From a virus: DNA of 64,000 nt. The translations under genes and the position numbers were made by a program. Of the stretch, positions 15,868-33,037 are shown piece by piece. The notes below the pieces were generated by a model, which was not told the DNA's origin, searched no databases, and worked only from the letters and a program-made list of their open reading frames with translations. The stretch lies in IMG/VR virus record IMGVR_UViG_3300032288_005424; one strand, 5' to 3'. Each line of letters begins with the position of its first letter. Within the stretch, counting starts at the first letter, position 1.

Positions 15868-16587
15868 ATGTCAAAAAGATTTGAAACAGCGGATGGCCTA
15901 CCGCAATACTTCAAGAGTATTGAATCAGTTGCCAAACCACTAAGCAAGACGGAGGAGCTTGCGCTAGCGGATAGAATCCAAGCGGGAGACGAGCGCGCGC
16001 TCAATGCTCTGGTAACCGCGAATCTAAAGTTCGTCGTAACCCTTGCGAATAAGTTTATCGGTATGGGATTACCGATCGATGACTTGATTCAAGAAGGAAA
16101 CGCTGGTCTAATTGAAGCGGCTCGTAAGTTTACATCAGATAAGGATGTTAAGTTTATTACCTATGCCCAGTTCTGGATTCGCAAGCGCTTGAATCTTGCT
16201 CTTTGCGATTACGGCAGAATCGTTAGGCTTCCGGTAAATCAAGAGTACGACATTTACAAGCGCAAGATGAAGGGAGAAGAAATCAATCTCTCAACCGTAC
16301 AGATCGATAAGCCTGTTGGCGAGGACGGTGACAATACAATCGGCGATATAATGCTTCGTACAGACTTTGCCGATCCGTTCGAGAAGGAAGAAACCAATCG
16401 TGTCTTGACCAGATTACTTTCAAAGTTAAGACCGACCGAAAGGGAGATTGTTGAATTGTTTTACGGTCTCGTGGGAGATGGCCTTTCTACGAAAGAAATC
16501 GCAGAGCAAGTTGGAAAGACCCCAGCTGAAGTTAACCGCGCGTTGAAGGTCGCACGTGCACAAATGAGAAAGGAGGTAAGCAAATGA
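15868..16587 (+). CDS. sigma-70 family RNA polymerase sigma factor (regions 2, 3, 4)
   Basis: Region 2 (NLKFVVTLANKF...DDLIQEGNAGLIEAARKFTSDKDVKFITYAQFWIRKRL) and region 4 (TEREIVELFYGL...LSTKEIAEQVGKTPAEVNRALKVARAQMRK). Confidence 0.7.
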   Translation: MSKRFETADGLPQYFKSIESVAKPLSKTEELALADRIQAGDERALNALVTANLKFVVTLANKFIGMGLPIDDLIQEGNAGLIEAARKFTSDKDVKFITYAQFWIRKRLNLALCDYGRIVRLPVNQEYDIYKRKMKGEEINLSTVQIDKPVGEDGDNTIGDIMLRTDFADPFEKEETNRVLTRLLSKLRPTEREIVELFYGLVGDGLSTKEIAEQVGKTPAEVNRALKVARAQMRKEVSK

Positions 16588-16799
16588 ATACGATAGAACA
16601 CGCAAACACGATGGCTGCCATGGCAGTCGATATCCTCTACTCTGAGGGTGATCCATTCAAGGAGCCAATAGATAAATCAAGACTCCAGTGGGAGATTCGT
16701 CAGGCCACCCTGAAGAAACTTGTGACTGAAGATTCAGACCTATTGGACGAAGACGAATTCCAAGCCTGCGTTAATAACTCTAAAATTCAAAAGGCATGA
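16584..16799 (+). CDS. small hypothetical protein
   Basis: 71-aa ORF whose start overlaps the sigma-gene stop (ATGA). Confidence 0.4.
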   Translation: MNTIEHANTMAAMAVDILYSEGDPFKEPIDKSRLQWEIRQATLKKLVTEDSDLLDEDEFQACVNNSKIQKA

Positions 16800-17092
16800 G
16801 CGTAGTAAGAATAATAAACGATACGGTCCACCTGTTCGAGAATTCGGGTAACCTGATAAGAACCATAACAAGCGGCGCGGTCTCAGCACAGATCTCTCCT
16901 GACGAGAGTCGTATTGTGCTAGTCACGGAGTCAGGGACCGCCCAGCTTTGGGACGTAAGAGGTAATTACCTACAGGATATTACGAGCGGAGCGGTCGATG
17001 CCCGATTCTCAGGAGACCTAATCATCGTTACCAAAGAGTACGGGCCGGATGAAGTTAGGGATGGGCGAGGAAATCTGCTCAGAACAATTTAA
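16796..17092 (+). CDS. repeat-containing small protein
   Basis: Internal repeats GNLIRTITSGAVSAQ / GNYLQDITSGAVDAR / GNLLRTI. Confidence 0.4.
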   Translation: MSVVRIINDTVHLFENSGNLIRTITSGAVSAQISPDESRIVLVTESGTAQLWDVRGNYLQDITSGAVDARFSGDLIIVTKEYGPDEVRDGRGNLLRTI

Positions 17093-17094
17093 CC

Positions 17095-17145
17095 GGTCTA
17101 AAAATAAATTTTTCCGTTTAAGAAAAAAGTATTATATTTACAATC
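17095..17145 (+). promoter_or_regulatory. promoter D (sigma-A type)
   Basis: AAAAATAAATTTTTCCGTTTAAGAAAAAAGTATTATATTTACAATC. Confidence 0.55.
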
Positions 17146-17167
17146 TCAACCCTAAAAATTTAAAATC

Positions 17168-17425
17168 ATGCGCTACAAATTAGGAAACAAATGGTCAGAC
17201 AACTTTGATTACGATGGAATGCTCGAGACCGGAGCACAGGTTACGGAAGAAACCCCGCTTGCAGACCTGCAGAAATTGTTTGACTCTTTCGAAGATGTCA
17301 ATTACCACACGGAATCCGAGCCGCTATGGGAAGCCATACAGGGCAAGAAGGCCGGGCAAGAAGAATACTTCAAGAAGAATCTAGCAGAGTTCAAGGCTCG
17401 CTGCTCAGCCTGCCTAGCAGAGTAA
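17168..17425 (+). CDS. small hypothetical protein
   Basis: 85-aa ORF. Confidence 0.45.
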   Translation: MRYKLGNKWSDNFDYDGMLETGAQVTEETPLADLQKLFDSFEDVNYHTESEPLWEAIQGKKAGQEEYFKKNLAEFKARCSACLAE

Positions 17426-17450
17426 AAGAATCTATCAAGAAAAAACAAAA

Positions 17451-17482
17451 GGGACCGAGGGTTAATCTTTCGGTCCCTTTTT
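17451..17482 (+). terminator. rho-independent terminator
   Basis: GGGACCGAgggttaatctTTCGGTCCC plus T-run, followed by a double TATAAT box (17485-17495). Confidence 0.6.
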
Positions 17483-17529
17483 AGTATAATATAATAGAGC
17501 CTAATTGGGTAAAAATAAATAATCAAACC

Positions 17530-17793
17530 ATGTCAGACCTAAATAAGTATTCCAAAATCCTGCTAGACCTCGTCTATCTTAGACAGACGGACTACGACGC
17601 TTTCATGAATCGCCTGTACGAAGCCTTGACCGGCGAGTTCAAGGATGTAATCAATGATTCAACCCCGGTCGAGGAGAAGTCTCAAGCAATATGGACCATG
17701 ATCAAGCATTTTGAAAAGAACGAAGAATTCGAGAAGTGCGCCGACCTGAAGAAATTAGCGGATCAATTACCTAAATCAAAAGATCATGTGTAA
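17530..17793 (+). CDS. small hypothetical protein (EEFEKCADL motif)
   Basis: 87-aa ORF sharing a motif with 2466..2663. Confidence 0.45.
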   Translation: MSDLNKYSKILLDLVYLRQTDYDAFMNRLYEALTGEFKDVINDSTPVEEKSQAIWTMIKHFEKNEEFEKCADLKKLADQLPKSKDHV

Positions 17794-17864
17794 GGTAATC
17801 CTAATAGTCGCAGCTTTCGTGTTGATTGAAGAATGGATCGTTCGCAAGAAAGCCTAAAACTTTT

Positions 17865-17925
17865 TTTGAAAAAAGTTTAAAATAAATTTTTTGGTTTCGC
17901 GGATTTTTGTTATATTTGCTCTATC
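17865..17925 (+). promoter_or_regulatory. promoter E (sigma-A type)
   Basis: TTTTTTTGAAAAAAGTTTAAAATAAATTTTTTGGTTTCGCGGATTTTTGTTATATTTGCTCTATCA. Confidence 0.55.
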
Positions 17926-17949
17926 ATTAACCAACTAAAATTTTAAATC

Positions 17950-18336
17950 ATGCAGAAATTAATTCTAGTCCGCTTCGGAAATCAACCGAACCCAATCGTC
18001 TCAATGGCTTTAAAACCCCATCTCGTTGGCAACGCGTTCGCCGGTCCAATCCCGGGCGCGATCATGTCGGTCTTTAACACCGAGTCCACGAAAGAGGAGA
18101 TCGCTGAAGACCTCAAAGAAACAGGTGCCTACTTCATGCTAATGCGAGCTGATGAAGCCACAATCAATCTTCCGGAAGAGTTGATGGAAGTAATTGCGCA
18201 AATCGTCGGTGAGGAACCTGGACGCGCGACAGACTCCAGTGAATTGACTATTGATGATATATTGGACCTCATCAACAAGAACGGTATTGAGTCCCTAACG
18301 CCCGAACAGAGACGTATCCTGGATAATCGCCATTAG
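17950..18336 (+). CDS. hypothetical acidic protein
   Basis: 128-aa ORF. Confidence 0.45.
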   Translation: MQKLILVRFGNQPNPIVSMALKPHLVGNAFAGPIPGAIMSVFNTESTKEEIAEDLKETGAYFMLMRADEATINLPEELMEVIAQIVGEEPGRATDSSELTIDDILDLINKNGIESLTPEQRRILDNRH

Positions 18337-18377
18337 GCGATTATCCCACTGTTAAATATAATCTAAACCCCATTTAT

Positions 18378-18593
18378 ATGAAGGAGATTGTAAGACTATA
18401 CTTATACACGGACGGCAAGGAAACTTGTATTAAAGACCCGCAAGAGATGATAAGACTTCTTTCAGACCCGCAGGAAGAAATAGACCTGGATTACCATGAT
18501 GCGAGAGGTTTCGCAAAGGTTGCAACCAGCAAAGACCTGATTGGAGAGACCGTCCAGGTTGGAGAAGTAGAGATTACTATTATTAACCATTAA
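18378..18593 (+). CDS. small protein, tandem paralog 1
   Basis: IRLLSDPQEEIDL...DLIGETVQVGEVEITII. Confidence 0.45.
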   Translation: MKEIVRLYLYTDGKETCIKDPQEMIRLLSDPQEEIDLDYHDARGFAKVATSKDLIGETVQVGEVEITIINH

Positions 18594-18605
18594 TCGAATT
18601 AGACC

Positions 18606-18830
18606 ATGCAAACACCAATAAACATTATAGATTGTATCGAGACCGTGGACAATTGGGGAGGTCAAGAAAAGTATTCAACTCAAGAAACGTTCAGACTCTT
18701 AAGTAATCCGGACGAATGGACAGACGACCAAATCTTTCGCGGCCCTGCTGGCGAGAGGTATTTTATAGACGACCTCATCGGAAAGAAAGTCACAGTCGGT
18801 CCAATGACATTTACCGTTCAAGAAGACTAA
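18606..18830 (+). CDS. small protein, tandem paralog 2
   Basis: FRLLSNPDEWTDD...DLIGKKVTVGPMTFTV, similar to 18378..18593. Confidence 0.45.
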   Translation: MQTPINIIDCIETVDNWGGQEKYSTQETFRLLSNPDEWTDDQIFRGPAGERYFIDDLIGKKVTVGPMTFTVQED

Positions 18831-18867
18831 AGATATTTCGAGAAATCGAGATTGGCGACAGGCTAAG

Positions 18868-18955
18868 GCTGCTCAGAAACGGGCAGCTTTTTTTTTGAAA
18901 AAAGTTTAAAATAAATTTTTTAGTGTCAAGTTTTTGTTGTATATTTGCTCTATCA
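18868..18955 (+). promoter_or_regulatory. terminator-promoter cassette F
   Basis: GCTGCtcagaaacggGCAGC plus T9, then GAAAAAAGTTTAAAATAAATTTTTTAGTGTCAAGTTTTTGTTGTATATTTGCTCTATCA. Confidence 0.6.
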
Positions 18956-18980
18956 TTAACCACCTAAATTATTAATCAAC

Positions 18981-19499
18981 ATGGCAAAGAAAATCCAAAC
19001 CACCGAACGCGCTAGCGGAACCTCATTCCACGGAACAGAATTCAGAGCGAGCGCAAACGAAATTATTGCAATCCTTGGCGAACCAACATACAATGACAAC
19101 AACGGCAGAGATAAGGTAAATCTTGAATGGGTATGCGAGACGGACGAAGGAGACGTCTTTACGATCTACGATTGGAAAGAGTATCGTCAAATCGGAATGG
19201 ACGAAAAGATTGATTGGCATATCGGAGGACACAGCGGCCGAGTAACTAAGAAGGCTGTGATGGAGCTTGAGAAGTTTGGAGTGAAGCCTTTGGAAGATAT
19301 GCTATCATTTAACGAATTTTTAAAAGAATCCAAAAAGCACAAACTAAGTATAGGCGATTTGATTGAATTTGATAACGCCGAAGCTAGAATTTATAATGTT
19401 TATACGACTAGAGGCGGTAAAGCCATGTACACAGTCGGCAGCTCAAAACATGGAACCATTGAGATTGAAGCCGAAGACATAGAAAAACAGATAAGGTAG
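18981..19499 (+). CDS. hypothetical protein
   Basis: 172-aa ORF. Confidence 0.5.
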   Translation: MAKKIQTTERASGTSFHGTEFRASANEIIAILGEPTYNDNNGRDKVNLEWVCETDEGDVFTIYDWKEYRQIGMDEKIDWHIGGHSGRVTKKAVMELEKFGVKPLEDMLSFNEFLKESKKHKLSIGDLIEFDNAEARIYNVYTTRGGKAMYTVGSSKHGTIEIEAEDIEKQIR

Positions 19500-19517
19500 A
19501 TTGATTGGATTACAGAA

Positions 19518-19605
19518 GCTGCTCAGAAATGGGCAGCTTTTTTTTTGAAAAAAGTTTAAAATAAATTTTTTTATTTGAGAAATTTGTTGTATATTTACAC
19601 TGTCA
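19518..19605 (+). promoter_or_regulatory. terminator-promoter cassette G (no ORF directly downstream)
   Basis: GCTGCtcagaaatggGCAGC plus T9, then GAAAAAAGTTTAAAATAAATTTTTTTATTTGAGAAATTTGTTGTATATTTACACTGTCA; about 100 nt follow without an ORF before the next cassette. Confidence 0.5.
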
Positions 19606-19708
19606 ATCAAACACTGACGGGACGGTTCGGAACAAGGAAGCGGGAGGTATACTCCGACCTGCACCAGACCTAGCGAGTTGTTAACAACCGAATGTTAATA
19701 ACTTTTTT

Positions 19709-19765
19709 TAAAAAAAGTGAAAATAAATTTTTTGGTTTGAGAAATTTGTTTTATATTTACAATCT
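19709..19765 (+). promoter_or_regulatory. promoter H (sigma-A type)
   Basis: AAAAAAAGTGAAAATAAATTTTTTGGTTTGAGAAATTTGTTTTATATTTACAATC. Confidence 0.55.
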
Positions 19766-19777
19766 AAATTAATCAAT

Positions 19778-20035
19778 ATGCCAACATCATTTCAACCAAT
19801 CGAAGCCCAAACATTACGGGCACAACTACAGACAGGAATTGTAAAATTCTTTTTTGTAAAAAAGGACGGCTCACTTCGTGAAGTCCAAGGAACCACCAAC
19901 TTACGCCACGTGCCGGCCGACAAACATCCTCAAGGCGTACGTCAAACCCCACCAAGCGTTATCACCTTCTGGGATCTCCTAGCGGGCGATTGGCGCAGTG
20001 CGAAAGTAGAAACTCAATTCTTTATTAACCCCTAA
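19778..20035 (+). CDS. small hypothetical protein
   Basis: 85-aa ORF. Confidence 0.45.
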   Translation: MPTSFQPIEAQTLRAQLQTGIVKFFFVKKDGSLREVQGTTNLRHVPADKHPQGVRQTPPSVITFWDLLAGDWRSAKVETQFFINP

Positions 20036-20047
20036 ACCCCACACATC

Positions 20048-20233
20048 ATGGTAACACAAGAAGCAATAGATGAAGCAATCAAAATATTCGGCGAGGACGT
20101 CGTTTATCAAGCAATGGAAGTCGTAGCAATGTCGGATCCCGATGGAGCCTACGCAATGTTCGAGGACATGGGCCAATTCGAAATGGCTGAAGCTGTAGAG
20201 TTTCTTTATTTCGACGGCTCTGCTGACGACTAA
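20048..20233 (+). CDS. small acidic protein
   Basis: 61-aa ORF. Confidence 0.4.
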   Translation: MVTQEAIDEAIKIFGEDVVYQAMEVVAMSDPDGAYAMFEDMGQFEMAEAVEFLYFDGSADD

Positions 20234-21414: not shown

Positions 21415-21470
21415 TCGGAAACTTCAGCACATAATTTAGTATATTAACCCAATAAAATAAATCAATAGAC

Positions 21471-22589
21471 ATGATAAGCCAATCAGAATTCAATCAGATC
21501 AAATCAGACCTAAGCGGCAACGACCCCTTGGTAAAGCGAGTGAAGTTGTCAGACATCCAGTTGGACGACAACTCAATCAAACATAACCACATCGAGATCG
21601 AGGGATCACGAGTTCCGGTGTCGGATAAGTTCTTCAATCGTCTGGGCCAGATGGTAAACATCAACACCGGCCTAATCACGAAGATGAATAAGAACTCGGA
21701 CAAGGAGATCGAGACCAAGCTCTTACAGGCGGTTAAGTCCTATTCAGAAACCCGTGATGGTAATAAAGAGTTTCTCTTAATCGGCGACTCTACGAGCCAT
21801 CAGGTAACCAACATCGTGAAGGGAGACAAGTATAACAGATTATCTAATGATACGCTGTTCGCTACCGCAGAGACCATCCTAAACGAGATCCCGGACATGC
21901 ACGTTGAGTCAATCGACCGTGGCGGTCCAGGCGGATTATCCATTAACATGATCCATGGCAGCCAGATAGGTTACGAGAAGATCGGTAAGGACGAGGTATT
22001 CCGTTTCGGTATCTCTCTTGTAAACGGCCAGACAGTAAGCCGAGTTGACGACTTCTTCTATCGCTTGGCCTGTGCCAACGGAGCGGTAGCTCGCAACATG
22101 GACACCGCGTTCCAATTCGGTCAGGGTCAGGACGCCTTCCGCAAGTTGCTCGAGCAGATGCAAGGTTGGGCAAAGAACGGCTTCGTACCTAAGACCTTCC
22201 AAGACAGGTTGGAAAGAGCCATGACCACCAAGGCAAGCTACTCAGAATTGGAGAGAGCCTTGTACTCAGTAACCGGTGCAATCCAAGAGAACGACCCTAA
22301 CTTCAAGGCCCACTTGATCAAGAACGCAGAGTCTCAATTCTTTCCAGAGTTCGATGCAACCACGAAGCGTATCTTCCGTAAGGGTTACAATCCGCTACAG
22401 TTGACAGACGCTCAAAAGAAGTTCATCAAGACAGATGCTACAATCTGGGACGTTGTTAACGAGTTGACATGGATCGGTTCTCACGATACTGTCTTCAACT
22501 TAAAGAACCATAAAGGTTTCAAGGTAGAGGGTGGTAATCTATTCGCTAAGAGCTGGGATCTAGAACACGCAGGTCTAGCTACAATCTAA
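21471..22589 (+). CDS. hypothetical protein
   Basis: 372-aa ORF; TATATT box at 21440-21445. Confidence 0.5.
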   Translation: MISQSEFNQIKSDLSGNDPLVKRVKLSDIQLDDNSIKHNHIEIEGSRVPVSDKFFNRLGQMVNINTGLITKMNKNSDKEIETKLLQAVKSYSETRDGNKEFLLIGDSTSHQVTNIVKGDKYNRLSNDTLFATAETILNEIPDMHVESIDRGGPGGLSINMIHGSQIGYEKIGKDEVFRFGISLVNGQTVSRVDDFFYRLACANGAVARNMDTAFQFGQGQDAFRKLLEQMQGWAKNGFVPKTFQDRLERAMTTKASYSELERALYSVTGAIQENDPNFKAHLIKNAESQFFPEFDATTKRIFRKGYNPLQLTDAQKKFIKTDATIWDVVNELTWIGSHDTVFNLKNHKGFKVEGGNLFAKSWDLEHAGLATI

Positions 22590-22618
22590 GCCTTAAACAA
22601 ACTATCTATAACCGGAAA

Positions 22619-22648
22619 GGGGTCCTCACAAGGGACCCCTTTTTTTTG
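22619..22648 (+). terminator. rho-independent terminator
   Basis: GGGGTCCtcacaaGGGACCCC plus T9. Confidence 0.65.
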
Positions 22649-22761
22649 TGTTTAGTAAAACCTTAAACTCAATCCAAGTATAAGACTACTGTAGCTGATT
22701 AAACAGCTTTTCATTTTTACGACTGATGGATGGGCTTCCTAATAAGGAGCCCATTCGTCGT

Positions 22762-22905
22762 TTAGCCCTGGCCGACATTGCGCTTCACGTAGTTCTTGGA
22801 GCTCTTGTTGTTAGAGGTCTTAGACTTCGCGTGCACGCCGGGCCTGCTCACTTTAGTCTTTAGTCTAAAGGTCGAGGCAGCCGAGGTTTTAGTTGATTTA
22901 GCCAT
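22762..22905 (-). CDS. small Lys-rich basic protein (47 aa)
   Basis: MAKSTKTSAASTFRLKTKVSRPGVHAKSKTSNNKSSKNYVKRNVGQG read from the minus strand inside the GC-rich island; possibly a DNA-binding protein. Confidence 0.3.
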   Translation of the reverse strand: MAKSTKTSAASTFRLKTKVSRPGVHAKSKTSNNKSSKNYVKRNVGQG

Positions 22906-23035
22906 TGAGAGATTATGATTTATTGTTATTTAACCCAAAAACCGTGCCTCCCCCGGTGAGCTCTGGAGTTGAGCCCCCAGGCCATGGGGATTCGGGTCAC
23001 AAGTACCTTCATCGCCCCCAAATAAATAAACCAGT

Positions 23036-23485
23036 ATGACAAAGACACTAGCGCAAAAGGATTTAGACTTCATCAGATTCTGCATAGCAGAATTAGGGAT
23101 AACCACCGCTCCCAACATCAGGGTCGGGGATGACCACTCAAAGGCCCAAGACCGGAGAGCAATGGGTTACTACAGTCCCAAGGATAATTACATTTGGGTG
23201 CTAAGGGGCCAGCGAATCCCGGCTGACTGGTACCGAACCCTAGCCCATGAGCTTGTGCATTGGCGCCAACGCGAAGAGGGTAAGCCATTGGACGGGGCGG
23301 ACGGTAGCGAGATCGAGAATGAAGCTAACTCCAAGGCAGCGGTGCTCCTACGCGAATGGGGCCGCCGTTACGAACACATTTACGTGCTGGACGAGGACGA
23401 GCCCCAGATTCCAGTAGGCACTGACCTGCCTTTCGATGGCGGTGGTAGCCTGGCCGGCGAGCCAATGGTTCCATTCTCTCTCTAA
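23036..23485 (+). CDS. HExxH motif protein (putative Zn peptidase, ImmA/IrrE-like?)
   Basis: LAHELVHW motif; ~58% GC; converges on and overlaps the recombinase gene by 4 nt. Confidence 0.4.
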   Translation: MTKTLAQKDLDFIRFCIAELGITTAPNIRVGDDHSKAQDRRAMGYYSPKDNYIWVLRGQRIPADWYRTLAHELVHWRQREEGKPLDGADGSEIENEANSKAAVLLREWGRRYEHIYVLDEDEPQIPVGTDLPFDGGGSLAGEPMVPFSL

Positions 23486-24105
23486 TCCCCAATCAAGCGG
23501 CGGGACTCCAGGATGAGATCCGCTAGATCCGACTTTAACTCTTCCCGCATCTCTTCAGTTGTTAGGTGCTTGCTAACTACATGCAGCTCGACACCGTGCC
23601 AGGTCAGGAATCTCTCTATGATCTCTTGGCCAGCAAAGCGCGCGATCCTGTCAGGGGTCTCGACGACAATCATTGAGACCTGCTTGCGCAGTACCCCGTC
23701 CATGATCTTGTCCAGGCCGGACCTGCCAGCTAGGGTACCCGCGCGCCCAACATCTTCAATGACCCGGTCGACCCGGACCCCGGCCGCCGCACAGTACTTC
23801 AGGACCCGCTCGGTCTGGGCCGCGAGTCTGGCCTTGGCCCCTTTACCCAACGTGTGGTTTCCCTCGATCGGAGCGGATCGCGTGTAAACCCATACCTCTC
23901 GGGACTGGGGCAGCCTACTCCCTAGTAACTTAAGTAGGTCCTGCTTGTCGTAGTAGGTCCGGCCATTGACCTGATTCTTCCAGTTCTGCAGCCTGCCGTC
24001 GGCGACATAGCGGTCCAGGGTCTTGAGCGAGACCCCCAAGAACTGGGCGGCCTCCTTCTTGTACACGAGCTCCCCGGTCGGGAAGGTTCTAGTTTCTTGT
24101 TCCAT
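23482..24105 (-). CDS. IS607-family-like serine recombinase (N-terminal MerR-like HTH plus resolvase catalytic domain)
   Basis: N-terminal HTH (AAQFLGVSLKTLDRYVADGRL) followed by resolvase motifs VWVYTRSAP...DRVIEDVGRAGTLAGRSGLDKI...VSMIVVETPDRIARF...GVELHVV; HTH-first order as in IS607 TnpA; ~65% GC; start set at MEQETRT (track gives 24270). Confidence 0.55.
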   Translation of the reverse strand: MEQETRTFPTGELVYKKEAAQFLGVSLKTLDRYVADGRLQNWKNQVNGRTYYDKQDLLKLLGSRLPQSREVWVYTRSAPIEGNHTLGKGAKARLAAQTERVLKYCAAAGVRVDRVIEDVGRAGTLAGRSGLDKIMDGVLRKQVSMIVVETPDRIARFAGQEIIERFLTWHGVELHVVSKHLTTEEMREELKSDLADLILESRRLIGD

Positions 24106-24400
24106 GAGATTATTTATCAGGCCGGGTCCGTGGACTCTCGAGACATTCCCGGGCCCGGTGTCCCGCGGTGTCCGTATATGTCCCGAGTCGTGGGGCCCTC
24201 GCGACCCAGGGCAGCAGGTCCCAGGGCCCGGGGCCGGGCTCGCCGTACTCCGTAGTCCCCAGGTCCGCACAGTAGGTACCCCTTGGGCGTGGCTGGCCGG
24301 TTTACTCCCTAGTCCCGGGTAGGACCGCAGAGGGCCGTGGCAGCCCCCGGACCGGTGGTCGGCTGGGGCCCGGCTATCGGGCCCGGCTTGAGCGAGATTG

Positions 24401-24415
24401 GGTATACTAGCCTAT
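24401..24415 (+). promoter_or_regulatory. class-2 box GGTATACTAG 7 nt before a 29-aa membrane peptide ORF
   Basis: GGTATACTAGCCTAT then ATG (24416) MKRAGIRFDWAWPIVLVVVLASIIIFFIA. Confidence 0.35.
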
Positions 24416-24632
24416 ATGAAAAGAGCAGGGATAAGATTTGATTGGGCATGGCCTATAGTGCTGGTGGTAGTGTTGGCTTCTATAATAATCTTTTTTATAG
24501 CATAGGTAGACTGGGTAGGTTTACTAGACTAGGTAGGTTTAGTAGCTAGAGTAATCTCTTTACTTTTGGGTGTAGGGCGCGCCTCGGTGTTTTTGAGCGA
24601 GAAAAGGTCCACGGCCCGGCGAGCTCGGGTCT

Positions 24633-24647
24633 GGGTATAATAGACTC
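24633..24647 (+). promoter_or_regulatory. class-2 box GGGTATAATAG just upstream of the tRNA-like element
   Basis: TATAAT at 24635-24640; a TSS ~7 nt downstream would precede the element at 24651. Confidence 0.4.
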
Positions 24648-24650
24648 TAT

Positions 24651-24772
24651 AGTCAGGTGGCGGAACGGTAGACGCAACAAGTAAGCTAATGGAAAGTGTA
24701 CAATTCCATGAGGCCATTAATTCCGAGATGTAAGAGAAGTACATCGTGCCCGTTCGAATCGGGTCCTGACCA
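24651..24772 (+). ncRNA. tRNA-like element with a ~35-50 nt insertion in the anticodon region (pseudo-tRNA or unusual RNA)
   Basis: 5' AGTCAGG-TG-GCG-GAACGGTAGA-CGC (acceptor, U8, D-arm with GG) and 3' GCCCG-TTCGAAT-CGGGT-CCTGACC-A (T-arm plus acceptor pairing 6/7); the middle is 72 nt instead of 22-39. Confidence 0.3.
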
Positions 24773-24791
24773 CTAATACAAATAGATCAAC

Positions 24792-24977
24792 ATGAAAGAA
24801 CAAAAAGTACTCGTGACCGGCGATCAGGGCTCGCATGAGGTGCAGGCCAAGGTCGATGCCCTACTCGTGGAGGGTTGGCAGGTGGTGTCGGTCACCGCAC
24901 AGCACGTTTCCACAGGTTCAAGCCAGTTCTTTAGGGGCGGTTACTTCATCGTCTTTGAACGGGCGGCCGCCGAATAA
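24792..24977 (+). CDS. small hypothetical protein
   Basis: 61-aa ORF, GC-rich. Confidence 0.4.
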   Translation: MKEQKVLVTGDQGSHEVQAKVDALLVEGWQVVSVTAQHVSTGSSQFFRGGYFIVFERAAAE

Positions 24978-24985
24978 ATAACTCT

Positions 24986-25477
24986 ATGAAGTATATCAAA
25001 CTATTCGAGGAACTTGCCTCTGACCTGCCTACTCTAAGGGACGTGATCGACAATAACCCCGACGATTTCGAAGATTTTAGGTCCGCTGCGGTAGAGACCG
25101 CCTCGGCGCTTGGCCTCAAGCTCTCCGGCGAGGACAGCGAACTACAGGACATGGGGCTCATTGATGACGAGGCCCTGTTCGACCGGCTCGAGTTTGATCG
25201 TGTTAAGCTCGTCTTTAACATTACCGAACTTACCCATGCTGATGCTCCAAGGCTCAGGGCCCTGGTGCAAAAGTTTCCTGGCCTCTTCACGCTTGATTAC
25301 GATGAGATTAGGCCCGCCCGCAAAGCTGTTCCAAACAAGACTATAGACCCTGAGGTTGACCTCGAGCCCGGCGAGCCGGTGGACGTCATCGTGTGGAAGG
25401 ACCAGGCTGGCAATACCGCGGTCCAGTGGGAGAGCTACTACAATAACATGTGGTTCATGCTGGACTCAGCACTTTAA
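24986..25477 (+). CDS. CTS-like N-terminus protein, tandem paralog 1
   Basis: MKYIKLFEELASD; ~52% GC; similar throughout to 25499..26017. Confidence 0.55.
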   Translation: MKYIKLFEELASDLPTLRDVIDNNPDDFEDFRSAAVETASALGLKLSGEDSELQDMGLIDDEALFDRLEFDRVKLVFNITELTHADAPRLRALVQKFPGLFTLDYDEIRPARKAVPNKTIDPEVDLEPGEPVDVIVWKDQAGNTAVQWESYYNNMWFMLDSAL

Positions 25478-25498
25478 AAAAAAGAATAATAAACCCAA

Positions 25499-26017
25499 AT
25501 GAAATACCTTAAGATATTCGAAGAATTCAATAATTCAGAACTTGCAACTCTACAGGACGTGCTCAATCCGGACCATTATAACGGGGATGACGGTCGCCTT
25601 GAGATGTACTCAGAGGCTGCGCTTGAGACCTGTAAGATGCTTGGCGTTGCACTACCTCCGGAGTTCGCAGAGATCAATGATCTTGGTCTCATTGACCAGC
25701 ATGACCTCATGGACAGCTTACCGCTGGACTCTGTGGTTGAGGTCTTTAACATACTGGCTCTCACCCACCAGAACGAGCCGAGAGTTCGTGAATTCTGCCG
25801 CCGCTTTCCTGGTATACTAGCATACGATCCGGACACCGACGAGTATCGTCGACCTGAGAGTTCACGACAGCTTGAAGAGATCTTTATTGACTCGCCGGAA
25901 TACTGGGACGAGGTTAGGGTGGTGCTCTTTGAGGACAAGAACGGGCTGAGAGCGGTTGAATGGGAGGACCAAGACTATCTAGGCTACTTCATGCTTAGAC
26001 GGGACCTTGAAAAATAA
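25499..26017 (+). CDS. CTS-like N-terminus protein, tandem paralog 2
   Basis: MKYLKIFEEFNNSE; shares LGLID...ALTH...FPG with 24986..25477. Confidence 0.55.
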   Translation: MKYLKIFEEFNNSELATLQDVLNPDHYNGDDGRLEMYSEAALETCKMLGVALPPEFAEINDLGLIDQHDLMDSLPLDSVVEVFNILALTHQNEPRVREFCRRFPGILAYDPDTDEYRRPESSRQLEEIFIDSPEYWDEVRVVLFEDKNGLRAVEWEDQDYLGYFMLRRDLEK

Positions 26018-26043
26018 ATAATCTTGTAAAAAAAGAAACTCAC

Positions 26044-26402: not shown

Positions 26403-26445
26403 GCCCGAACGGCTGGACGATAAATAACAATAAACTGGAATTCCA

Positions 26446-28111: not shown

Positions 28112-28753
28112 TTGAACGCTAATAATTTGAAATACGTTAAACTATACGAGAACTTCTTTGAGGACATGGAACGTGCAGCGGACCAAGCTCACAAGCCCGT
28201 GCCCTTTAAGAAGCAGGAGAAGAAGCCTAAGCCCGAACCGCAAGCCGAACCTCAAGAGGAGCCAGTTAAGGTTCAAGAACCCGCTGAAACCAGACCAGAA
28301 GAGGACACTACTGAAACGACGACTGAAGCACCAGCGCCTGAGGAACCCAAAACATTCAAGGACTGGCTCACAGGTAAAGTAAAAAAGCTTGTTGAGTTCG
28401 AAGAGACCGATCAGAGCGTGAGGTGCTGGGCAGAGCTTGAGAATGAAACCTCATGCCAATGGTCCATTTCAATGGAGGATTACCCAACGGTCGAGGCAAG
28501 TTTCAAGCTTGGAGCTGACACCGTCTATTTGGACGATGATACCTCTGGCGAGATTGCTCGTGAATACTACACTAAAAAGCGAGAGTACGATCCAAAACCT
28601 TGGACCGAATGCGTGCTACAGGTTGGAGCCCAATTTCCGGAATTCATGAGAAGAATGGAGAAGGAGGCAATCAATCGAGCGACCGATCAAGACATTGAAC
28701 TCTCAAAGATAATTGCAGCCCAATTCGGCACCCAAAAAACAGGCAAAAAATAA
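28112..28753 (+). CDS. CTS-like N-terminus protein with a Pro/Glu-rich linker
   Basis: MNANNLKYVKLYENFFEDME. Confidence 0.5.
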   Translation: MNANNLKYVKLYENFFEDMERAADQAHKPVPFKKQEKKPKPEPQAEPQEEPVKVQEPAETRPEEDTTETTTEAPAPEEPKTFKDWLTGKVKKLVEFEETDQSVRCWAELENETSCQWSISMEDYPTVEASFKLGADTVYLDDDTSGEIAREYYTKKREYDPKPWTECVLQVGAQFPEFMRRMEKEAINRATDQDIELSKIIAAQFGTQKTGKK

Positions 28754-28763
28754 AAGATCATTC

Positions 28764-29096
28764 ATGAAAAATTTAAAAGCATTCAATCAATTCATACATG
28801 AAGAACTCGATAAGGACGAAACTGGCGAGCTTAGAAGCATGGGTTTCTCTGATTACTCAGCTCCTTTCAGAGAACGTTATCAGGCATTAGTCGAAGAATG
28901 GGGTTCTGATCCTGAAGTAAATGCAGCAATCGATACTTTAAAATCCAGGTTCCGCGAACTGTTCGCAAAGCACATAGATTCCGATTCAGATGATGATGCT
29001 GAGGAGATTGAACAACTGAGAACATGGATGTACGATGCCAACGGTATTGACGATATCGGATGGTTCGAGTACATTTTTATCAATGACCTTTACTAA
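28764..29096 (+). CDS. CTS-like N-terminus acidic protein, AT-rich paralog of 10227..10565
   Basis: MKNLKAFNQFIHEE; ELRSMGFSDYSAP...DPEVNAAIDTLKSRFRELFAKH. Confidence 0.5.
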   Translation: MKNLKAFNQFIHEELDKDETGELRSMGFSDYSAPFRERYQALVEEWGSDPEVNAAIDTLKSRFRELFAKHIDSDSDDDAEEIEQLRTWMYDANGIDDIGWFEYIFINDLY

Positions 29097-29120
29097 TAAT
29101 TGATACTTATTTTTATAATT

Positions 29121-29146
29121 GACCGGTCCATGTGACCGGTTTTTTT
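29121..29146 (+). terminator. terminator
   Basis: GACCGGTCcatgtGACCGGT plus T7; followed by TGTACATTAAC box and a 35-aa membrane peptide ORF (29160..29267, MKRLNKWTFWDWAIIFIFSAWIVGMTWILMNAPLN). Confidence 0.55.
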
Positions 29147-29271
29147 GTACATTAACTTCATGAAAAGACTTAATAAATGGACGTTCTGGGATTGGGCAAT
29201 CATATTCATCTTTAGTGCATGGATAGTTGGCATGACCTGGATTCTAATGAACGCTCCGTTAAACTAACGCA

Positions 29272-29877
29272 ATGAAAATAACAGATGACGTAATCGTTAA
29301 ATTTTTTGGGCACGGCCGTGGATTCACAATGACCTCAATTAAAAGATGGGGCGGATTCATAAAGGACGAAGACGATCTTGAGCATGCCCAGTTTCATGCA
29401 ATCCGTAGTGCGGTTTCAGCCAAGGACCGTGAGATTGAATTTGAGAATGAGGTTCACATGGTGAATTACCTAATGAAGAATTGTTATTGGGGTTGGTGTG
29501 AGGCCGTTAAACGTAGGCTTAGATTACCAGTCGTATTGGAAAGTCAGCTGATTCCAGCTGGGGCAGAAGAAGATCGAGCACCTGTCAACAAGCTTGAAGA
29601 GTCGGTTGAGCCCAAGGAAATGGTGCTCGATCCTCACAGGCTACACGGAATCGCAAAACACCTTGTGCTTCAAGAACTCGGTCCAGTATCGGCCAGCATT
29701 TTTGAACTACACTACGTCAATGAATTAATTGTCAAGGATGTTGCAAAAGAGCTTGAACTCAAACCTGAGATCGTTCGAAATAGACTTACCACAATCAAGA
29801 GATTGCTCAATAGAAGGCTCAAGCATTTCGCGAATAATAATTATCAAATAGGCCGAGGCCGGCTTCACGCTTATTAA
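29272..29877 (+). CDS. ECF-like sigma factor / sigma-70 region-4 transcription factor
   Basis: Region-2-like FHAIRSAVSA...NYLMKNCYWGWCEAVKRR and region-4 HTH IFELHYVNELIVKDVAKELELKPEIVRNRLTTIKRLLNRRL. Confidence 0.5.
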   Translation: MKITDDVIVKFFGHGRGFTMTSIKRWGGFIKDEDDLEHAQFHAIRSAVSAKDREIEFENEVHMVNYLMKNCYWGWCEAVKRRLRLPVVLESQLIPAGAEEDRAPVNKLEESVEPKEMVLDPHRLHGIAKHLVLQELGPVSASIFELHYVNELIVKDVAKELELKPEIVRNRLTTIKRLLNRRLKHFANNNYQIGRGRLHAY

Positions 29878-29979
29878 TCCAGGCATACTTATTTTAAAAA
29901 CGGGATCCTTTAGACCCCGTTTTTTTATTTTACGGGAGTCCGGCAAATAAATAACTAGGTAAATAATTAGTAACTCCAA

Positions 29980-30204
29980 ATGAAGCACATCAAACTATTT
30001 GAGCAATTCATAACCGAATTCTACGCGGCTGAGCCGGCTACCAGACCGGCACCTACCATTGCTCCGACCAAGCCTGCTACAAGACCAAAACCGGGCCCAA
30101 TTCCTACAAAGAAACCGTTCAAACAACCTGAGCCAGCAAAAGCTCAAGCTGAAGACGTGTTGGCTCGTCTAAAAGAACTAGAGAATGAGAATGAAATCGT
30201 TTAA
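29980..30204 (+). CDS. CTS-like N-terminus small Pro-rich protein
   Basis: MKHIKLFEQFITEF. Confidence 0.45.
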   Translation: MKHIKLFEQFITEFYAAEPATRPAPTIAPTKPATRPKPGPIPTKKPFKQPEPAKAQAEDVLARLKELENENEIV

Positions 30205-31642
30205 ACAATTCATGAATGAGGCCGATATCAAGGGAAATCCAGCTATTTCGCCAGAGTACTTAGCCTCCCTAAACAAGAGAGCTGAGGCTAGTGCCAGAGA
30301 GATTGAAGAACGATATGGCCGTGAAGTGATGAATCTAATGAAGTTTGCGAAAGAAGTACAGGAAATTCAAAATAAGAAAGACGACACTGATAAATCAGCA
30401 AATGGGCCAACCGATAATGCTTCAAAGATCACTAAACTTGAGGCTTTAACCAAAAGTGTAATAGAACAGTTTTACGGTCCTATCCTTAGAGATACAGAAC
30501 TAGACATTAGAATTCCTACTGACCCACGTGAAATGAAGCAAAAAATGGATCAGGAAAAGTCGGAGGCTGATGAGATGCCGGCCTTCAAAGAAATTGAGGA
30601 CGATGCCACTCGAACAGCGATTCACAAGCGTAAGATCCTAAACATGATTACTCAGGGCGAGGCCATCAATTCAAAGAAAATGCTTTTGAGCGATGTTAAT
30701 AGGGACGGATTAGCCGAAATATTTGGAAAAGCTGATTCTGAAAAAATGATAGAGCTCTTAATTAAGATAACCGATATCTGTAATGCCAGAGACTGGCGTA
30801 TACCCGAGGAAGTTGCAGAATTAATGATCGAACAGGGGCAATCTCTGAGCGGCGTTTCTAAGATTGAATGGAAACCTAACAGGTCAAAACAAGATGACTC
30901 AGCCGATGAACCTGAAAATGATGAAGATTCACCAGCAGATGATCATTCAACCGATACTGCAAAGCTAATCATTTTGGGAATGGATCAAGCAATGCTTTTC
31001 CATGAAGCAGTCAAAGCAATTTACGGCTTAATTAATCAGGGTGGGCTTGCTCATCTTGATGATGAGACCATTGCAAAGGTCTTTATGAACGCTGACACTC
31101 CAAGGGATGAGGTTCAAGATCTTAAGAGAGCTAAGCTAACTGCTGCGGATCTTAGAGATTTCATCAATGATTTCCCAGAGGTTGCGACTATTGAAAACGG
31201 TCGAGAATACGTTTGGGGTAAGATGATTGATGCAAGCATTCTACCCGATGCAAAGTTCCTTGAACTAATGCGATTGATCTTCACAGCAGCTCCTCTTTAC
31301 AGACAGGTTAGTGAGAACGAACCGCCTTACTCAGAAGAGGAAATCTCTGCTGCTCGCGAAGCAATGCCTAAAGCCCAAGCGGTCGTTAACAAGTTGATTC
31401 AGCTAATACAAGACGAGCTCGCTGACTGGGAAGATTCAGTTTCGGGTTCAGAATACGATGATGAAGATTACGGAGACTCTAGCTTCGATAACGCGTTCGA
31501 TAATGGTTTTTTACCAAGAGCAGCCAGAGGCGAAATGAGCCAGTCTGAAATTCAGAGTTTGATTGACCAAGCACTAGATCGCCGAGACTTTGCTGAAGTC
31601 CAAAGACTTTCTAAACTATTGAAAGAGAGTAATTTAAGTTAA
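30191..31642 (+). CDS. CTS-like N-terminus large acidic protein
   Basis: MKSFKQFMNEADIK, near-identical to the T4 internal-protein CTS MKTYQEFIAEA; ~484 aa. Confidence 0.55.
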   Translation: MKSFKQFMNEADIKGNPAISPEYLASLNKRAEASAREIEERYGREVMNLMKFAKEVQEIQNKKDDTDKSANGPTDNASKITKLEALTKSVIEQFYGPILRDTELDIRIPTDPREMKQKMDQEKSEADEMPAFKEIEDDATRTAIHKRKILNMITQGEAINSKKMLLSDVNRDGLAEIFGKADSEKMIELLIKITDICNARDWRIPEEVAELMIEQGQSLSGVSKIEWKPNRSKQDDSADEPENDEDSPADDHSTDTAKLIILGMDQAMLFHEAVKAIYGLINQGGLAHLDDETIAKVFMNADTPRDEVQDLKRAKLTAADLRDFINDFPEVATIENGREYVWGKMIDASILPDAKFLELMRLIFTAAPLYRQVSENEPPYSEEEISAAREAMPKAQAVVNKLIQLIQDELADWEDSVSGSEYDDEDYGDSSFDNAFDNGFLPRAARGEMSQSEIQSLIDQALDRRDFAEVQRLSKLLKESNLS

Positions 31643-32466
31643 TGAAGCATTTAAAACTATTTGAAAGTTGGGTCAATGAGGCTCTAACCGCAGATCAAAT
31701 TGCTGCACAGATTCAAGCAGCAGTCGCCGGCATTGGCACGGACGAGACTGCTCTAACCTCAGCAATCCGATCAATTCCTGACGCAGCTTCTTTAGTTAAA
31801 ATCAACAAGACTTTAAAAGCAGGTCATGAGGATCAGCAGAAAGCATGGGCATATCCAAGCGTTGGTGATGCAATTAATGGAGAGCTTGGATTGTTTGACT
31901 CTGATTACAAGACTCAGATAATGACCCACATCAAGAACATTAGAGCAGAACAGTACCTTAATTCGTTCAAAGCCCCGCCTCCTCCAACCGACCCGGTCAT
32001 TGCATCAATCAAGGATCGCGTAATAAAACATGAAGGCTCAAAGCCTTTCAAATACCTGGATTCCAGAAAGATCCCAACTATTGGAGTAGGTTTTAATCTT
32101 ACTCGAGGGGACGCTTCTCTCCAATTAAAAAAGGTTGGAGCTAATCCTGAAAAGATCAAGTCGGGTAAATCTCCATTGACTCAGGACCAGATAAATGCTC
32201 TGCTTTTTACTGATCTTAAACAGGCAAAGTTAAATGCCCAAGATCTAGTTCCAAACATGGAAACTCTACCCACCCAAGTTCAAGGAGTCTTAACTGAAAT
32301 GGTTTTCAACCTGGGCAAGACTGGGCTTTCTGAGTTCAAGAATTTTCTAGCCCACATAAAACAGAAAAACTTTGATGCTGCCTCAGACGAAATGCTAAAG
32401 TCTACATGGGCAAAACAGGTCGGCGAAAGAGCCATAACCTTAGCAGGTCTCATCAAAGCAGCCTAA
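31642..32466 (+). CDS. CTS-like N-terminus plus GH24 (T4-type) lysozyme domain
   Basis: MKHLKLFESWVNEA; HEGSKPFKYLDSRKIPTIGVGFNL matches the GH24 E-G-x(n)-Y-x-D-x-x-G-x-x-T-I-G-x-G core. Confidence 0.65.
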   Translation: MKHLKLFESWVNEALTADQIAAQIQAAVAGIGTDETALTSAIRSIPDAASLVKINKTLKAGHEDQQKAWAYPSVGDAINGELGLFDSDYKTQIMTHIKNIRAEQYLNSFKAPPPPTDPVIASIKDRVIKHEGSKPFKYLDSRKIPTIGVGFNLTRGDASLQLKKVGANPEKIKSGKSPLTQDQINALLFTDLKQAKLNAQDLVPNMETLPTQVQGVLTEMVFNLGKTGLSEFKNFLAHIKQKNFDAASDEMLKSTWAKQVGERAITLAGLIKAA

Positions 32467-32473
32467 CTTTTTT

Positions 32474-32491
32474 GGTATAATAGGTCTATCT
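32474..32491 (+). promoter_or_regulatory. class-2 box TTTTGGTATAATAGG 10 nt before the sigma-gene ATG
   Basis: TATAAT at 32476-32481. Confidence 0.4.
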
Positions 32492-33037
32492 ATGGACTTA
32501 AATTTACGCTACGTCGATCCAATGGTCGACATGGCCAAAACCGGTGATGATCGTGCTCTTGCAGATTTGTGGAATCAATGGAAGCCTTTAGCCTATAAGA
32601 CGGCTGCTAAATACTTAACCGATCGGGGCGAACTTGATCAAGCTGTAGCTCAGGGACTTGCTAAAGCTCTCATGAATCTAGACAAGTGGAGCGGAACTGG
32701 CCCTTTCGCTGCCTGGTTAGCAAGGGTCGTTTGTAACGAAACTGTTAATTGGATTAGGCAATTCAAGACAAAGGCAAAGGTATTTTCTGACATTGATGGA
32801 ATTGATGTTAAAATCGAAGACGTTCATGCGGACAGGCCGGCTCTAAATTTAATTAGGGGAATCGTTGATAATCTTCCGACTAGACAACAATTTGCATTCA
32901 AGCTTGTTGTCTATGAGGATTTATCGTATGAGGAGGCTGCTGTGCACATGGGCACAACAGCCGGTGCAGTCAAGTCAAACGTGCATGATGCAAAGACTAA
33001 ACTAAGAAAATTGTTGTCTGGGACTGGGCTTCGATAA
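32492..33037 (+). CDS. ECF-type RNA polymerase sigma factor
   Basis: Region 2 (DLWNQWKPLAYKTAAKYL...FAAWLARVVCNETVNWIRQ) and region 4 (LPTRQQFAFKLVVYEDLSYEEAAVHMGTTAGAVKSNVHDAKTKLRKLL). Confidence 0.65.
   Translation: MDLNLRYVDPMVDMAKTGDDRALADLWNQWKPLAYKTAAKYLTDRGELDQAVAQGLAKALMNLDKWSGTGPFAAWLARVVCNETVNWIRQFKTKAKVFSDIDGIDVKIEDVHADRPALNLIRGIVDNLPTRQQFAFKLVVYEDLSYEEAAVHMGTTAGAVKSNVHDAKTKLRKLLSGTGLR

Follow-up and report, generated by a model that had tools for sequence, protein, structure and literature searches.

Stepwise exchange of sigma factors is textbook phage biology, exemplified by SPO1, SP10, and T4, and we know of almost no transcription programs in Bacteroidota phages outside the crAss-like phages. 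In SPO1 and SP10, host sigma-A is followed by gp28 for middle genes and by gp33/gp34 for late genes, and there is also a third, sporulation-like sigma factor. Both phages carry three sigma factors (PMC9429907), and a further account of the SPO1-type cascade describes phage sigma factors that redirect the host core RNA polymerase (RNAP) step by step (PMC13401047). Group 2 jumbo phages, Bacteroidetes megaphages included, encode sigma factors in place of RNA polymerase (PMC7824862); the literature searched contained no description of promoter classes for these phages or for the Mahaphage clade. Here we analyze a stretch of 64,000 nucleotides (nt) from IMG/VR virus record IMGVR_UViG_3300032288_005424, referred to below as the window, in which an initial annotation had proposed that three sigma-factor-like genes (here S1, S2, and S3) form a sigma cascade.

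The open reading frames (ORFs) of S1 (15868-16587, 239 amino acids, aa), S2 (29272-29877, 201 aa), and S3 (32492-33037, 181 aa) were all confirmed on the + strand, and their products share the sigma-70 fold family. Three classes of upstream motif are present in the window; all are linked to gene starts and recur in relatives, and every sigma gene stands behind the motif stated for it below. The combination of one compact RpoD-like and two extracytoplasmic function (ECF)-like sigma factors in a Bacteroidota-type phage, with defined and conserved promoter-like classes and a divergent S2 family, is new. So are two features beyond the earlier claims, namely, a class-2-like box before S2 and a third, much commoner motif class, ATAAATAA. 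As in SPO1 and SP10, there are three sigma genes, the first behind host-type early promoters and the later ones behind the preceding class. Unlike in those phages, the signals are of the Bacteroidota type, the sigma factors are not orthologous, and the predicted promoters, known here from sequence alone, are -10-only boxes 4 to 26 nt from start codons. The group 2 jumbo phages (T4-like lineage of Iyer et al. 2021; Prevotella Lak, Tenacibaculum PTm1) and the Mahaphage clade (Al-Shayeb et al. 2020) likewise have their own sigma factors, including an RpoD-like one, with no RNAP seen, but here two extra ECF-like sigma factors replace or accompany the minimal gp55-type sigma.

S1 scores above the Pfam gathering thresholds (GA) for Sigma70_r2 (49.5 bits, GA 24), Sigma70_r4_2 (33.8, GA 25.7), Sigma70_r4 (29.4, GA 24.1), and Sigma70_r1_2 (22.5, GA 22), which places it in both the sigma-2 (regions 2.1 to 2.4) and sigma-4 domain families. 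It also exceeds the TIGR02937 cutoff (91.3 bits, cutoff 42.9) and belongs to PHROG 351, 'RNA polymerase sigma factor' (1.8e-47). Regions 2 and 4 were thus present as annotated; region 3, also claimed at first, is not supported as a full domain. The one Sigma70_r3 match (21.8 bits, GA 25.3) falls at residues 208-230, inside the region-4 helix-turn-helix (HTH). Aligned with Staphylococcus aureus SigA, S1 covers regions 1.2 to 2.4 and the region 3.2 finger (VGEDGDNTIGD) with a shortened sigma-3 segment, about 20 residues being absent after region 2.4; some close homologues do score PF04539. The core-binding helix DLIQEGNxGL is kept along with the finger, and in this region 2.2 helix DLIQEGNAGLIEAARKF of S1 lies opposite DLIQEGNMGLIKAVEKF of SigA. 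Regions 1.2 to 2.4 match SigA, RpoD, and RpoS of Firmicutes, cyanobacteria, and proteobacteria, the best match being S. aureus SigA (1.2e-29). However, S1, just 239 aa long and starting with region 1.2, misses the equivalog cutoffs for primary sigma factors (RpoD_Cterm, 114 bits versus 354; RpoS, 121 versus 379), and it is therefore not a primary sigma factor. The RpoD/RpoS scores and the region 1.2 start also rule out the JGI name 'primary sigma factor' for this gene. Its membership of the sigma-70 family is unambiguous, and it is predicted to be a compact, alternative-type sigma factor whose region 2 is closest to RpoD/RpoS/SigA.

S1 far exceeds S2 and S3 in conservation and spread, with 639 related proteins at E ≤ 1e-20, more than 120 of them at least 64% identical. 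A 127-kb contig encodes S1 at 86% and S2 at 45% identity to those of the window, a difference that fits a factor tied to the core enzyme and a fixed promoter. Identity to any catalogued phage sigma is about 30% (30-31% for the Lak phage sigma).

For S3, the ECF-like assignment with region 2 and a region-4 HTH was confirmed in full, with scores above cutoff for Sigma70_r2 (32.7, GA 24), Sigma70_r4_2 (47.4, GA 25.7), and TIGR02937 (70.4, cutoff 42.9). S3 is clearly a two-domain sigma factor of the ECF type (sigma-2 and sigma-4 only), and it also matches SigY, SigW, and SigE. Like the sigma factors of bacterial ECF (group 4) modules, S3, and S2 by its fold, have a sigma-2-linker-sigma-4 arrangement, and a very small membrane ORF adjoins S2 (window, L008-L011, L018) or S3 (L015). 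Unlike in ECF/anti-sigma modules, this small ORF encodes 31 to 36 aa and precedes the sigma gene, and an anti-sigma domain was detected neither in it nor in the genes neighboring S3. Two further differences from bacterial ECF modules are that no bipartite -35/-10 motif was found and that S2 fails region 2 sequence models. Four related contigs (L008-L011) preserve the synteny of S2 and S3.

S2 proved far more divergent. On its own sequence, region 4 is subthreshold (Sigma70_r4_2, 21.4, GA 25.7), as is the TIGR02937 score (26.6, cutoff 42.9), and there is no match to Pfam Sigma70_r2 and no PHROG family. The profile searches by which the three genes were to be checked thus bore out sigma domains in S1 and S3, and S2 fell short of the Pfam and TIGR02937 cutoffs. 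Support for its ECF-like character came from the family profile and the fold. The close family has 12 members, and an exhaustive profile search yielded 42 representatives, mostly of 220-245 aa, that align end to end; 16 of the 42 match Sigma70_r4_2 at E < 0.01 (best 1.1e-7), and none matches Sigma70_r2. In the PDB, the family profile finds sigma-H, SigF, SigB, and FliA, essentially over the C-terminal half (sigma-H 3mzy, 1.6e-5). An hhalign comparison matches the S2 family to the S3 family collinearly, with regions 2 through 4 in register (Prob 90%, E 1.6e-6, 152 columns). An AlphaFold2 model built from the 42-sequence alignment has a predicted local distance difference test (pLDDT) score of 86, with 94-98 in the N-domain and 97-98 in the C-domain, joined by an acidic, disordered linker of about 30 residues (about 95-121; pLDDT 54-57 at 100-120); it replaced an earlier model from 13 sequences, in which the N-domain pLDDT was 62. 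The top 50 Foldseek matches of the model in the PDB are all sigma factors, at E-values of 1e-3 to 0.3 and a template modeling (TM) score of about 0.3. Model, Foldseek, and hhalign agree on sigma-2 and sigma-4 folds in the correct order with a flexible linker between them. Very probably S2 is a highly divergent sigma-2-linker-sigma-4 protein, and it may act as a sigma factor. It founds a phage-only family whose putative region 2 goes unrecognized by current sequence libraries.

Among all 235 window ORFs, a hidden Markov model (HMM) of the S2 family detects S1 (2e-7) and S3 (8e-5) and no others, so the family HMMs reveal no fourth sigma-like ORF or other paralogue there. Neither S2 nor P0041, a remote member of its family, had a tblastn match in INPHARED, even at E-values of 1 and 0.01. 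Kinship of S2 with T4 gp55 was considered and rejected (hhalign of the S2 family, Prob 5%). Remote S2-family members (about 20-25% identity, 230-240 aa) occur on L013, L014, and L017, which are unrelated and apparently smaller phage contigs, so the family is not confined to the large-phage lineage. Their genes stand among small early and recombination genes (ERF, PDDEXK). Co-occurrence with ATAAATA boxes is weakly hinted at in L013 and not in L017, and we did not use it as evidence.

The first motif class is a cassette of about 80 nt, of the form ...AAAAAAGTGAAAATAAATTTTTTGGTTTGAGAAATTTGTTTTATATTTGCTCTATCA, with eight copies between 12872 and 19779 (Table 1). One of the eight precedes S1, in agreement with the host-type early promoter first annotated for this gene. 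The -7 box, TATATTTG/A, matches the Bacteroidetes -7 consensus (TAnnTTTG/TAHHTTTG), with AT-rich sequence upstream and 18-39 nt to the ATG; five copies carry the TATATTTG box, and four, S1's among them, carry TATATTTA (G-5 to A). Spacing of the -33 TTTG is not clearly canonical, and the pattern TTTG-N15-21-TAnnTTTG is only weakly enriched when taken alone (7 versus 2.6 expected), so the cassette alignment is the better evidence. A class-1 box precedes S1 in L001-L005 and L019 as well, and TATATTTA recurs before S1 on the 127-kb contig whose S2 is 45% identical. TAHHTTTG has been described as the -7 consensus of Bacteroidetes, a phylum in which E. coli-type promoters are not expressed (PMC6847099).

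Class 2, TRGTATAWTA, has 9 sites in the window versus 0.48 expected, all on the + strand 5-39 nt ahead of starts and with a T-run upstream; it is a predicted E. coli-style extended -10 element (TGnTATAAT-type), a promoter type reportedly inactive with Bacteroidetes sigma-A. The class-2 box annotated before S3 was confirmed. It is invariant in L008-L011, where the upstream coding DNA diverges, and it is kept in L015 before an S3 of 49% identity, with a small ORF in between. No -35 element was seen upstream of the S3 box. Before S2, a terminator-like hairpin, a degenerate class-2 box, and a 36-aa predicted membrane ORF follow one another (Table 1). The same order, hairpin, canonical box (TTTTTTAGTATAATA), homologous 31-aa ORF, and S2, is found in L018, which has the same topoisomerase synteny and an S2 only about 37% identical. 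The canonical box at this orthologous site identifies the S2 box of the window as a class-2 box with one hexamer mismatch, and the degenerate form is kept in L008-L011. The small membrane ORF (31 to 36 aa, MK..K.W.F.DW.I......W..G.; window 29160-29268, L018 778-873, L015 2045-2149) directly precedes S2 both in this clade and in L018, whereas in L015 it is S3 that it directly precedes. This ORF may encode a minimal, possibly anti-sigma-like partner of the ECF-like sigma factors.

Class 3, ATAAATAA, has 24 sites versus 4.66 expected. Nineteen of these have a start on the same strand no more than 45 nt downstream (background, 4.2%), and two more, at 10590(-) and 24110(-), do so under improved gene calls. 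Box-to-ATG spacing is bimodal in this class (4-7 nt and 16-26 nt) and when classes 2 and 3 are pooled (4-10 nt and 16-39 nt); with boxes only 4-10 nt from the ATG, such mRNAs would be leaderless or nearly so. Most Flavobacterium mRNAs have been reported to carry leaders. An unbiased search for enriched 7-mers in the 60 nt upstream of 100 ORFs returned only ATAAATA/TAAATAA (p ~1e-19), GTATAAT/TATAATA, and TATATTT, thus recovering only the three motif classes; no further upstream motif, such as a GC-containing ECF-type or a bipartite -35/-10 motif, was found in the window. The orthologues of ORFs 21471, 36363, 37398, 38919, and 42904 keep their boxes (L007, L019), and the orthologue of ORF 17530 on the 127-kb contig keeps tandem class-2 and class-3 boxes. 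Such tandem boxes, at ORF 17530 and the tRNA array, suggest expression in two temporal classes. Ahead of the sigma genes, the motif arrangements are kept in relatives down to 37-49% protein identity.

The window belongs to a large phage, uncultured and from freshwater, that is a distant relative of huge phages of 462-642 kb and most likely infects Bacteroidota. A nucleotide search with the 15-35 kb part of the window against 50,697 phage records gave no match. The gene content is phage-like, with genes for a phage lysozyme, the large and medium subunits of T4-type topoisomerase II, a phosphoribosyl pyrophosphate (PRPP) synthetase, an RNA-ligase-like protein, Endonuclease_NS, a GH19/peptidoglycan (PG)-binding lysin, a Tad6 homologue, a serine recombinase, and five tRNAs. 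In its medium subunit, the topoisomerase shares 51-59% identity with the uncultured 462-642 kb phages LR745206, LR756502, LR756504, and LR756500, which to judge from size and accession series would be huge phages of Al-Shayeb et al. Genomes above 634 kb were predicted to infect Bacteroidetes (Al-Shayeb et al.). Metagenome contigs from freshwater and estuaries, the longest of 141 kb, carry genes that are the same or nearly the same; large contigs of this lineage include the 141-kb Ga0480350_0000009 (JGI 3300043456) and the 127-kb NODE_7 (ENA ERZ15185611). A Bacteroidota host is supported by the early promoters, by a protein with a Por_Secre_tail type IX secretion system (T9SS) signal, and by the near absence of Shine-Dalgarno (SD)-like sequences (SD-like 4-mer within 20 nt upstream in 4 of 83 genes).

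Because the sigma genes stand behind ordered motif classes and this order is kept in relatives, a cascade is plausible. We infer that the motifs are promoters with distinct timing, each paired with a sigma factor. The phage, with no RNA polymerase gene in the window, would use its own sigma factors to reprogram the host core enzyme. First, the host primary sigma (Bacteroidota sigma-A type, with its unusual promoter TTTG/TAnnTTTG) would fire the eight-copy cassette, one copy of which would drive S1. S1 would then direct the core enzyme to class-2 promoters (TTT-R-GTATAATA), which the host sigma presumably does not recognize; this pairing is suggested because S1 is the only sigma gene behind host-type promoters, has an RpoD-like region 2, and class 2 is unsuited to the host sigma. 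Class 2 would drive the topoisomerase genes, tRNAs, other genes, and S3, as well as, through the weakened box, the operon of the small ORF and S2. The next step, at class-3 promoters (R-ATAAATAA), would fall to S2 and/or S3 or to a gp55-like protein encoded beyond the window; the genes of this class include lysozyme, the cell-surface cohesin/Por_Secre_tail protein, and many of unknown function. S2 or S3 as class-3 readers would fit by position in the hierarchy. Many class-2 and class-3 mRNAs would be leaderless or nearly so. We lean slightly toward this stepwise early-to-late scheme as a whole. In the cascade first proposed, the phage origin, the Bacteroidota-type host, and the promoter hierarchy stood; the sigma-to-motif assignments and the timing are what we infer.

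Several points weigh against this scheme. At the E. coli sigma-70 positions that we take to contact the -12 base and the extended -10 TG (Q437, T440, R441, H455, and E458), S1 reads K, N, L, N, and Y (homology via the SigA alignment), and because these contact residues differ, reading of TGnTATAAT by S1 cannot be predicted from its sequence. The S2 box of this clade has its mismatch within the hexamer. No conserved -35-like element accompanies class 2 or class 3 in the window, and since ECF-type sigma factors normally need one, S2 and S3 may have other targets. Autoregulation is common among ECF sigma factors, and the class-2 box ahead of S3 could accordingly mean that S3 itself reads class 2. 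The class-3 core equals that of the T4 late promoter, whose reader in T4-like phages is gp55 working with gp33 and the clamp; tblastn for gp55 and gp45 homologues in the 64-kb window gave nothing below E 4.5. With a class-3 motif that is gp55-like and lacks a -35 element, and with most of the genome beyond the window, which shows 64 kb of at least about 140 kb, we rate the cascade as partly supported.

It is possible, though in our estimate somewhat unlikely, that class 3 is read by T4-type late machinery (gp55-like and gp33-like proteins and a clamp) whose genes lie in another part of the genome. S2 and S3 would then serve smaller regulons or conditions beyond those that the window represents. 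The T4 late promoter is TATAAATA; its ATAAATA core is the same as that of R-ATAAATAA, and neither has a -35 element. The T4 motif is widely conserved, in T4-like, ViI-like, and rV5-like phages. The T4-type topoisomerase II genes of the window, the minimal sigma and gp33 of group 2 jumbo phages, and the fraction of the genome in view would also suit such machinery. Set against this are the lack of a gp55 or gp45 homologue within the window, the conservation and synteny of S2 and S3 behind middle-type boxes, which fit sigma genes under a phage transcription program, and the fact that the window shows no other motif class for them to read. Nor were gp55-, AsiA-, or MotA-like factors found among ten ORFs of 160-213 aa (PHROGs) and ten small early ORFs (Pfam), the latter including two cotranscribed with S1. 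T4 differs further in that gp55 has no sigma-4 domain, whereas the candidate readers here do, and in that many boxes here lie 4-7 nt from the ATG.

S3 looks like an ordinary bacterial ECF sigma factor, and the tiny membrane ORF beside S2 or S3 in several relatives recalls envelope-sensing ECF/anti-sigma pairs. S2 and/or S3 might accordingly be auxiliary genes that retune host stress or envelope transcription while S1 alone runs the phage program, a reading that we consider improbable. Dispensable phage sigma factors acting on host programs are documented (SPO1 gp2.21, SP10 g120; PMC9429907), but the S2 and S3 families are narrow and confined to phage-like contigs, both genes lie inside phage operons with phage-type boxes, and S3 shares just 30% identity with its nearest bacterial-like relative, giving no sign of recent host capture. 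It is equally improbable that S2 is an HTH regulator or a sigma-mimicking cofactor (an appropriator or gp33-like region-4 surrogate) with an N-domain that is merely sigma-2-like. Sigma70_r2 is unmatched at any threshold, the PDB profile matches are restricted to the C-terminal HTH, and the Foldseek scores are weak; yet the top 50 Foldseek matches are all full-length sigma factors, the alignment to the S3 family runs collinearly through region 2, and the domain order, size, and linker are those of ECF architecture. That class-2 and class-3 boxes are translation initiation or RNA-processing signals (A-rich, Kozak-like leaders), the sigma genes being transcribed by read-through, is very unlikely: the boxes do lie 4-26 nt from start codons, several overlap the stop codon of the upstream gene, and Bacteroidetes lack SD sequences and prefer A-rich leaders (PMC6847099), but compositional preference would not yield near-invariant 8- to 10-mers, the class-2 box matches the TGnTATAAT type exactly, terminator hairpins often precede the boxes (26446, 29980, 49455, and the S2 operon), divergent pairs of boxes stand between divergent genes (4308/4327 and 48734/48769), and a tandem box precedes an untranslated tRNA array.

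A more far-reaching version of the cascade, which we hold to be quite doubtful, would have S2 and/or S3 replace gp55/gp33 and read the -10-only R-ATAAATAA late promoters to give leaderless mRNAs, with S2 an unrecognized phage-only branch of sigma-70 and the 31- to 36-aa peptide a minimal anti-sigma or timing device. The lineage is abundant in freshwater metagenomes, and its three sigma family proteins and three promoter-like classes offer a sequence-defined, testable wiring across clades. If the cascade holds, it would provide portable promoter/sigma pairs orthogonal to Bacteroidota sigma-A, would allow early, middle, and late genes of uncultured huge phages to be assigned from sequence alone, and would add S2 as a new divergent sigma-like family.

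Table 1. Motif boxes and associated features of the window, by class
Feature	Coordinates	Strand	Context
Class-1 cassette, TATATTTG	12872-12951	+	family D1
Class-1 cassette, TATATTTG	14951-15030	+	before ORF 15050
Class-1 cassette, -7 box TATATTTA at 15823-15830	15771-15850	+	before S1; -7 box 37 nt before ATG
Class-1 cassette, TATATTTA	17081-17160	+	before ORF 17168
Class-1 cassette, TATATTTG	17859-17938	+	before ORF 17950
Class-1 cassette, TATATTTG	18888-18967	+	before ORF 18981
Class-1 cassette, TATATTTA	19538-19617	+	
Class-1 cassette, TATATTTA	19700-19779	+	before ORF 19778
Class-2 box	1493-1502	+	5 nt before in-frame ATG 1508 of deacetylase-like ORF
Class-2 box	17482-17491	+	before ORF 17530; tandem with class-3 box 17515-17522, kept in L019
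Class-2 box	21437-21446	+	before ORF 21471; kept in L019
Terminator-like hairpin, stem ACCGGTC/GACCGGT and T-run	29122-29146	+	upstream of S2 operon; kept in L008-L011
Degenerate class-2 box TTTTTTTGTACATTA, core GTACATTA at 29147-29154	29140-29154	+	5 nt before 36-aa ORF
36-aa predicted membrane ORF, MKRLNKWTFWDWAIIFIFSAWIVGMTWILMNAPLN	29160-29268	+	directly upstream of S2, apparently cotranscribed
Class-2 box TGGTATAATA	32473-32482	+	10 nt before S3 ATG
Class-2 box	36346-36355	+	8 nt before ORF 36363; orthologous site in L007
Class-2 box	40080-40089	+	6 nt before ORF 40095, then topoisomerase II large subunit
Class-2 box	42887-42896	+	8 nt before topoisomerase II medium subunit gene (42904); site also in L007
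Class-2 box	49153-49162	+	before ORF 49198
Class-2 box	58694-58703	+	6 nt before ORF 58709
Tandem class-2 GTATAATA and class-3 ATAAATAA	63346-63366	+	upstream of tRNA array 63585-63989
Divergent class-3 pair	4308-4315 (-), 4327-4334 (+)	-, +	ORFs 3487-4302(-) and 4353(+)
Class-3 box	7312-7319	-	5 nt before Endonuclease_NS ORF 6644-7306(-)
Class-3 box	9072-9079	-	before ORF 7820-9046(-)
Class-3 box	9815-9822	-	before ORF 9511-9795(-)
Class-3 box	10590-10597	-	24 nt before ORF 10227-10565(-); gene called in L001
Class-3 box	23022-23029	+	6 nt before ORF 23036
Class-3 box	24110-24117	-	4 nt before in-frame ATG 24105 of serine recombinase ORF
Class-3 box	24974-24981	+	4 nt before ORF 24986
Class-3 box	26014-26021	+	before ORF 26044
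Class-3 box	26420-26427	+	before ORF 26446
Class-3 box	29947-29954	+	before operon 29980-32466 (74 aa, 485 aa, lysozyme), directly upstream of S3
Class-3 box	33059-33066	+	before ORF 33090, directly downstream of S3
Class-3 box	37373-37380	+	before ORF 37398; orthologous site in L007
Class-3 box	38906-38913	+	5 nt before ORF 38919; orthologous site in L007
Divergent class-3 pair	48734-48741 (-), 48769-48776 (+)	-, +	ORFs 47890-48717(-) and 48784(+)
Class-3 box	49430-49437	+	before cohesin/Por_Secre_tail ORF 49455
Class-3 box	61634-61641	+	before ORF 61662
Class-3 box	62245-62252	+	before ORF 62274

Other features of the window were recorded alongside these motifs. The protein encoded at 49455-51380 (641 aa), which has a class-3 box ahead of its gene, combines a cohesin domain with the C-terminal Por_Secre_tail (T9SS sorting) signal and appears to be exported via the host type IX secretion system. 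A Tad6 homologue, an inhibitor of type I Thoeris (PF25188, 9.3e-22), is encoded at 60358-61047 as an antidefense gene. Auxiliary genes encode a histone-deacetylase-like protein (1451-2527), the PRPP synthetase (45680-46633), an SPFH/Band 7 protein (58968-59804), and a DUF481 outer-membrane-like protein (46815-47564, -); the related contig L018 carries SmpB. Two GC-rich islands, at 10000-12000 and 22000-26000, have 52-53.5% GC versus 39-43% for the genome. The second holds the serine recombinase gene (23482-24270, -; Resolvase and HTH_17), which is found at the same place in L007 and L008, suggesting an integrated or mobile module. Finally, a GC-rich repeat ending in GGACTCCCTAGTA occurs on the + strand at 13446, 15456, 15512, 20472, 20535, and 23915 (6 versus 0.65 expected), and two copies, which follow early ORFs, extend to a near-identical 24-mer, CGGGGYCGGACTCCCTAGTAAAGA. 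This repeat could be a terminator, a recombination site, or a processing site.

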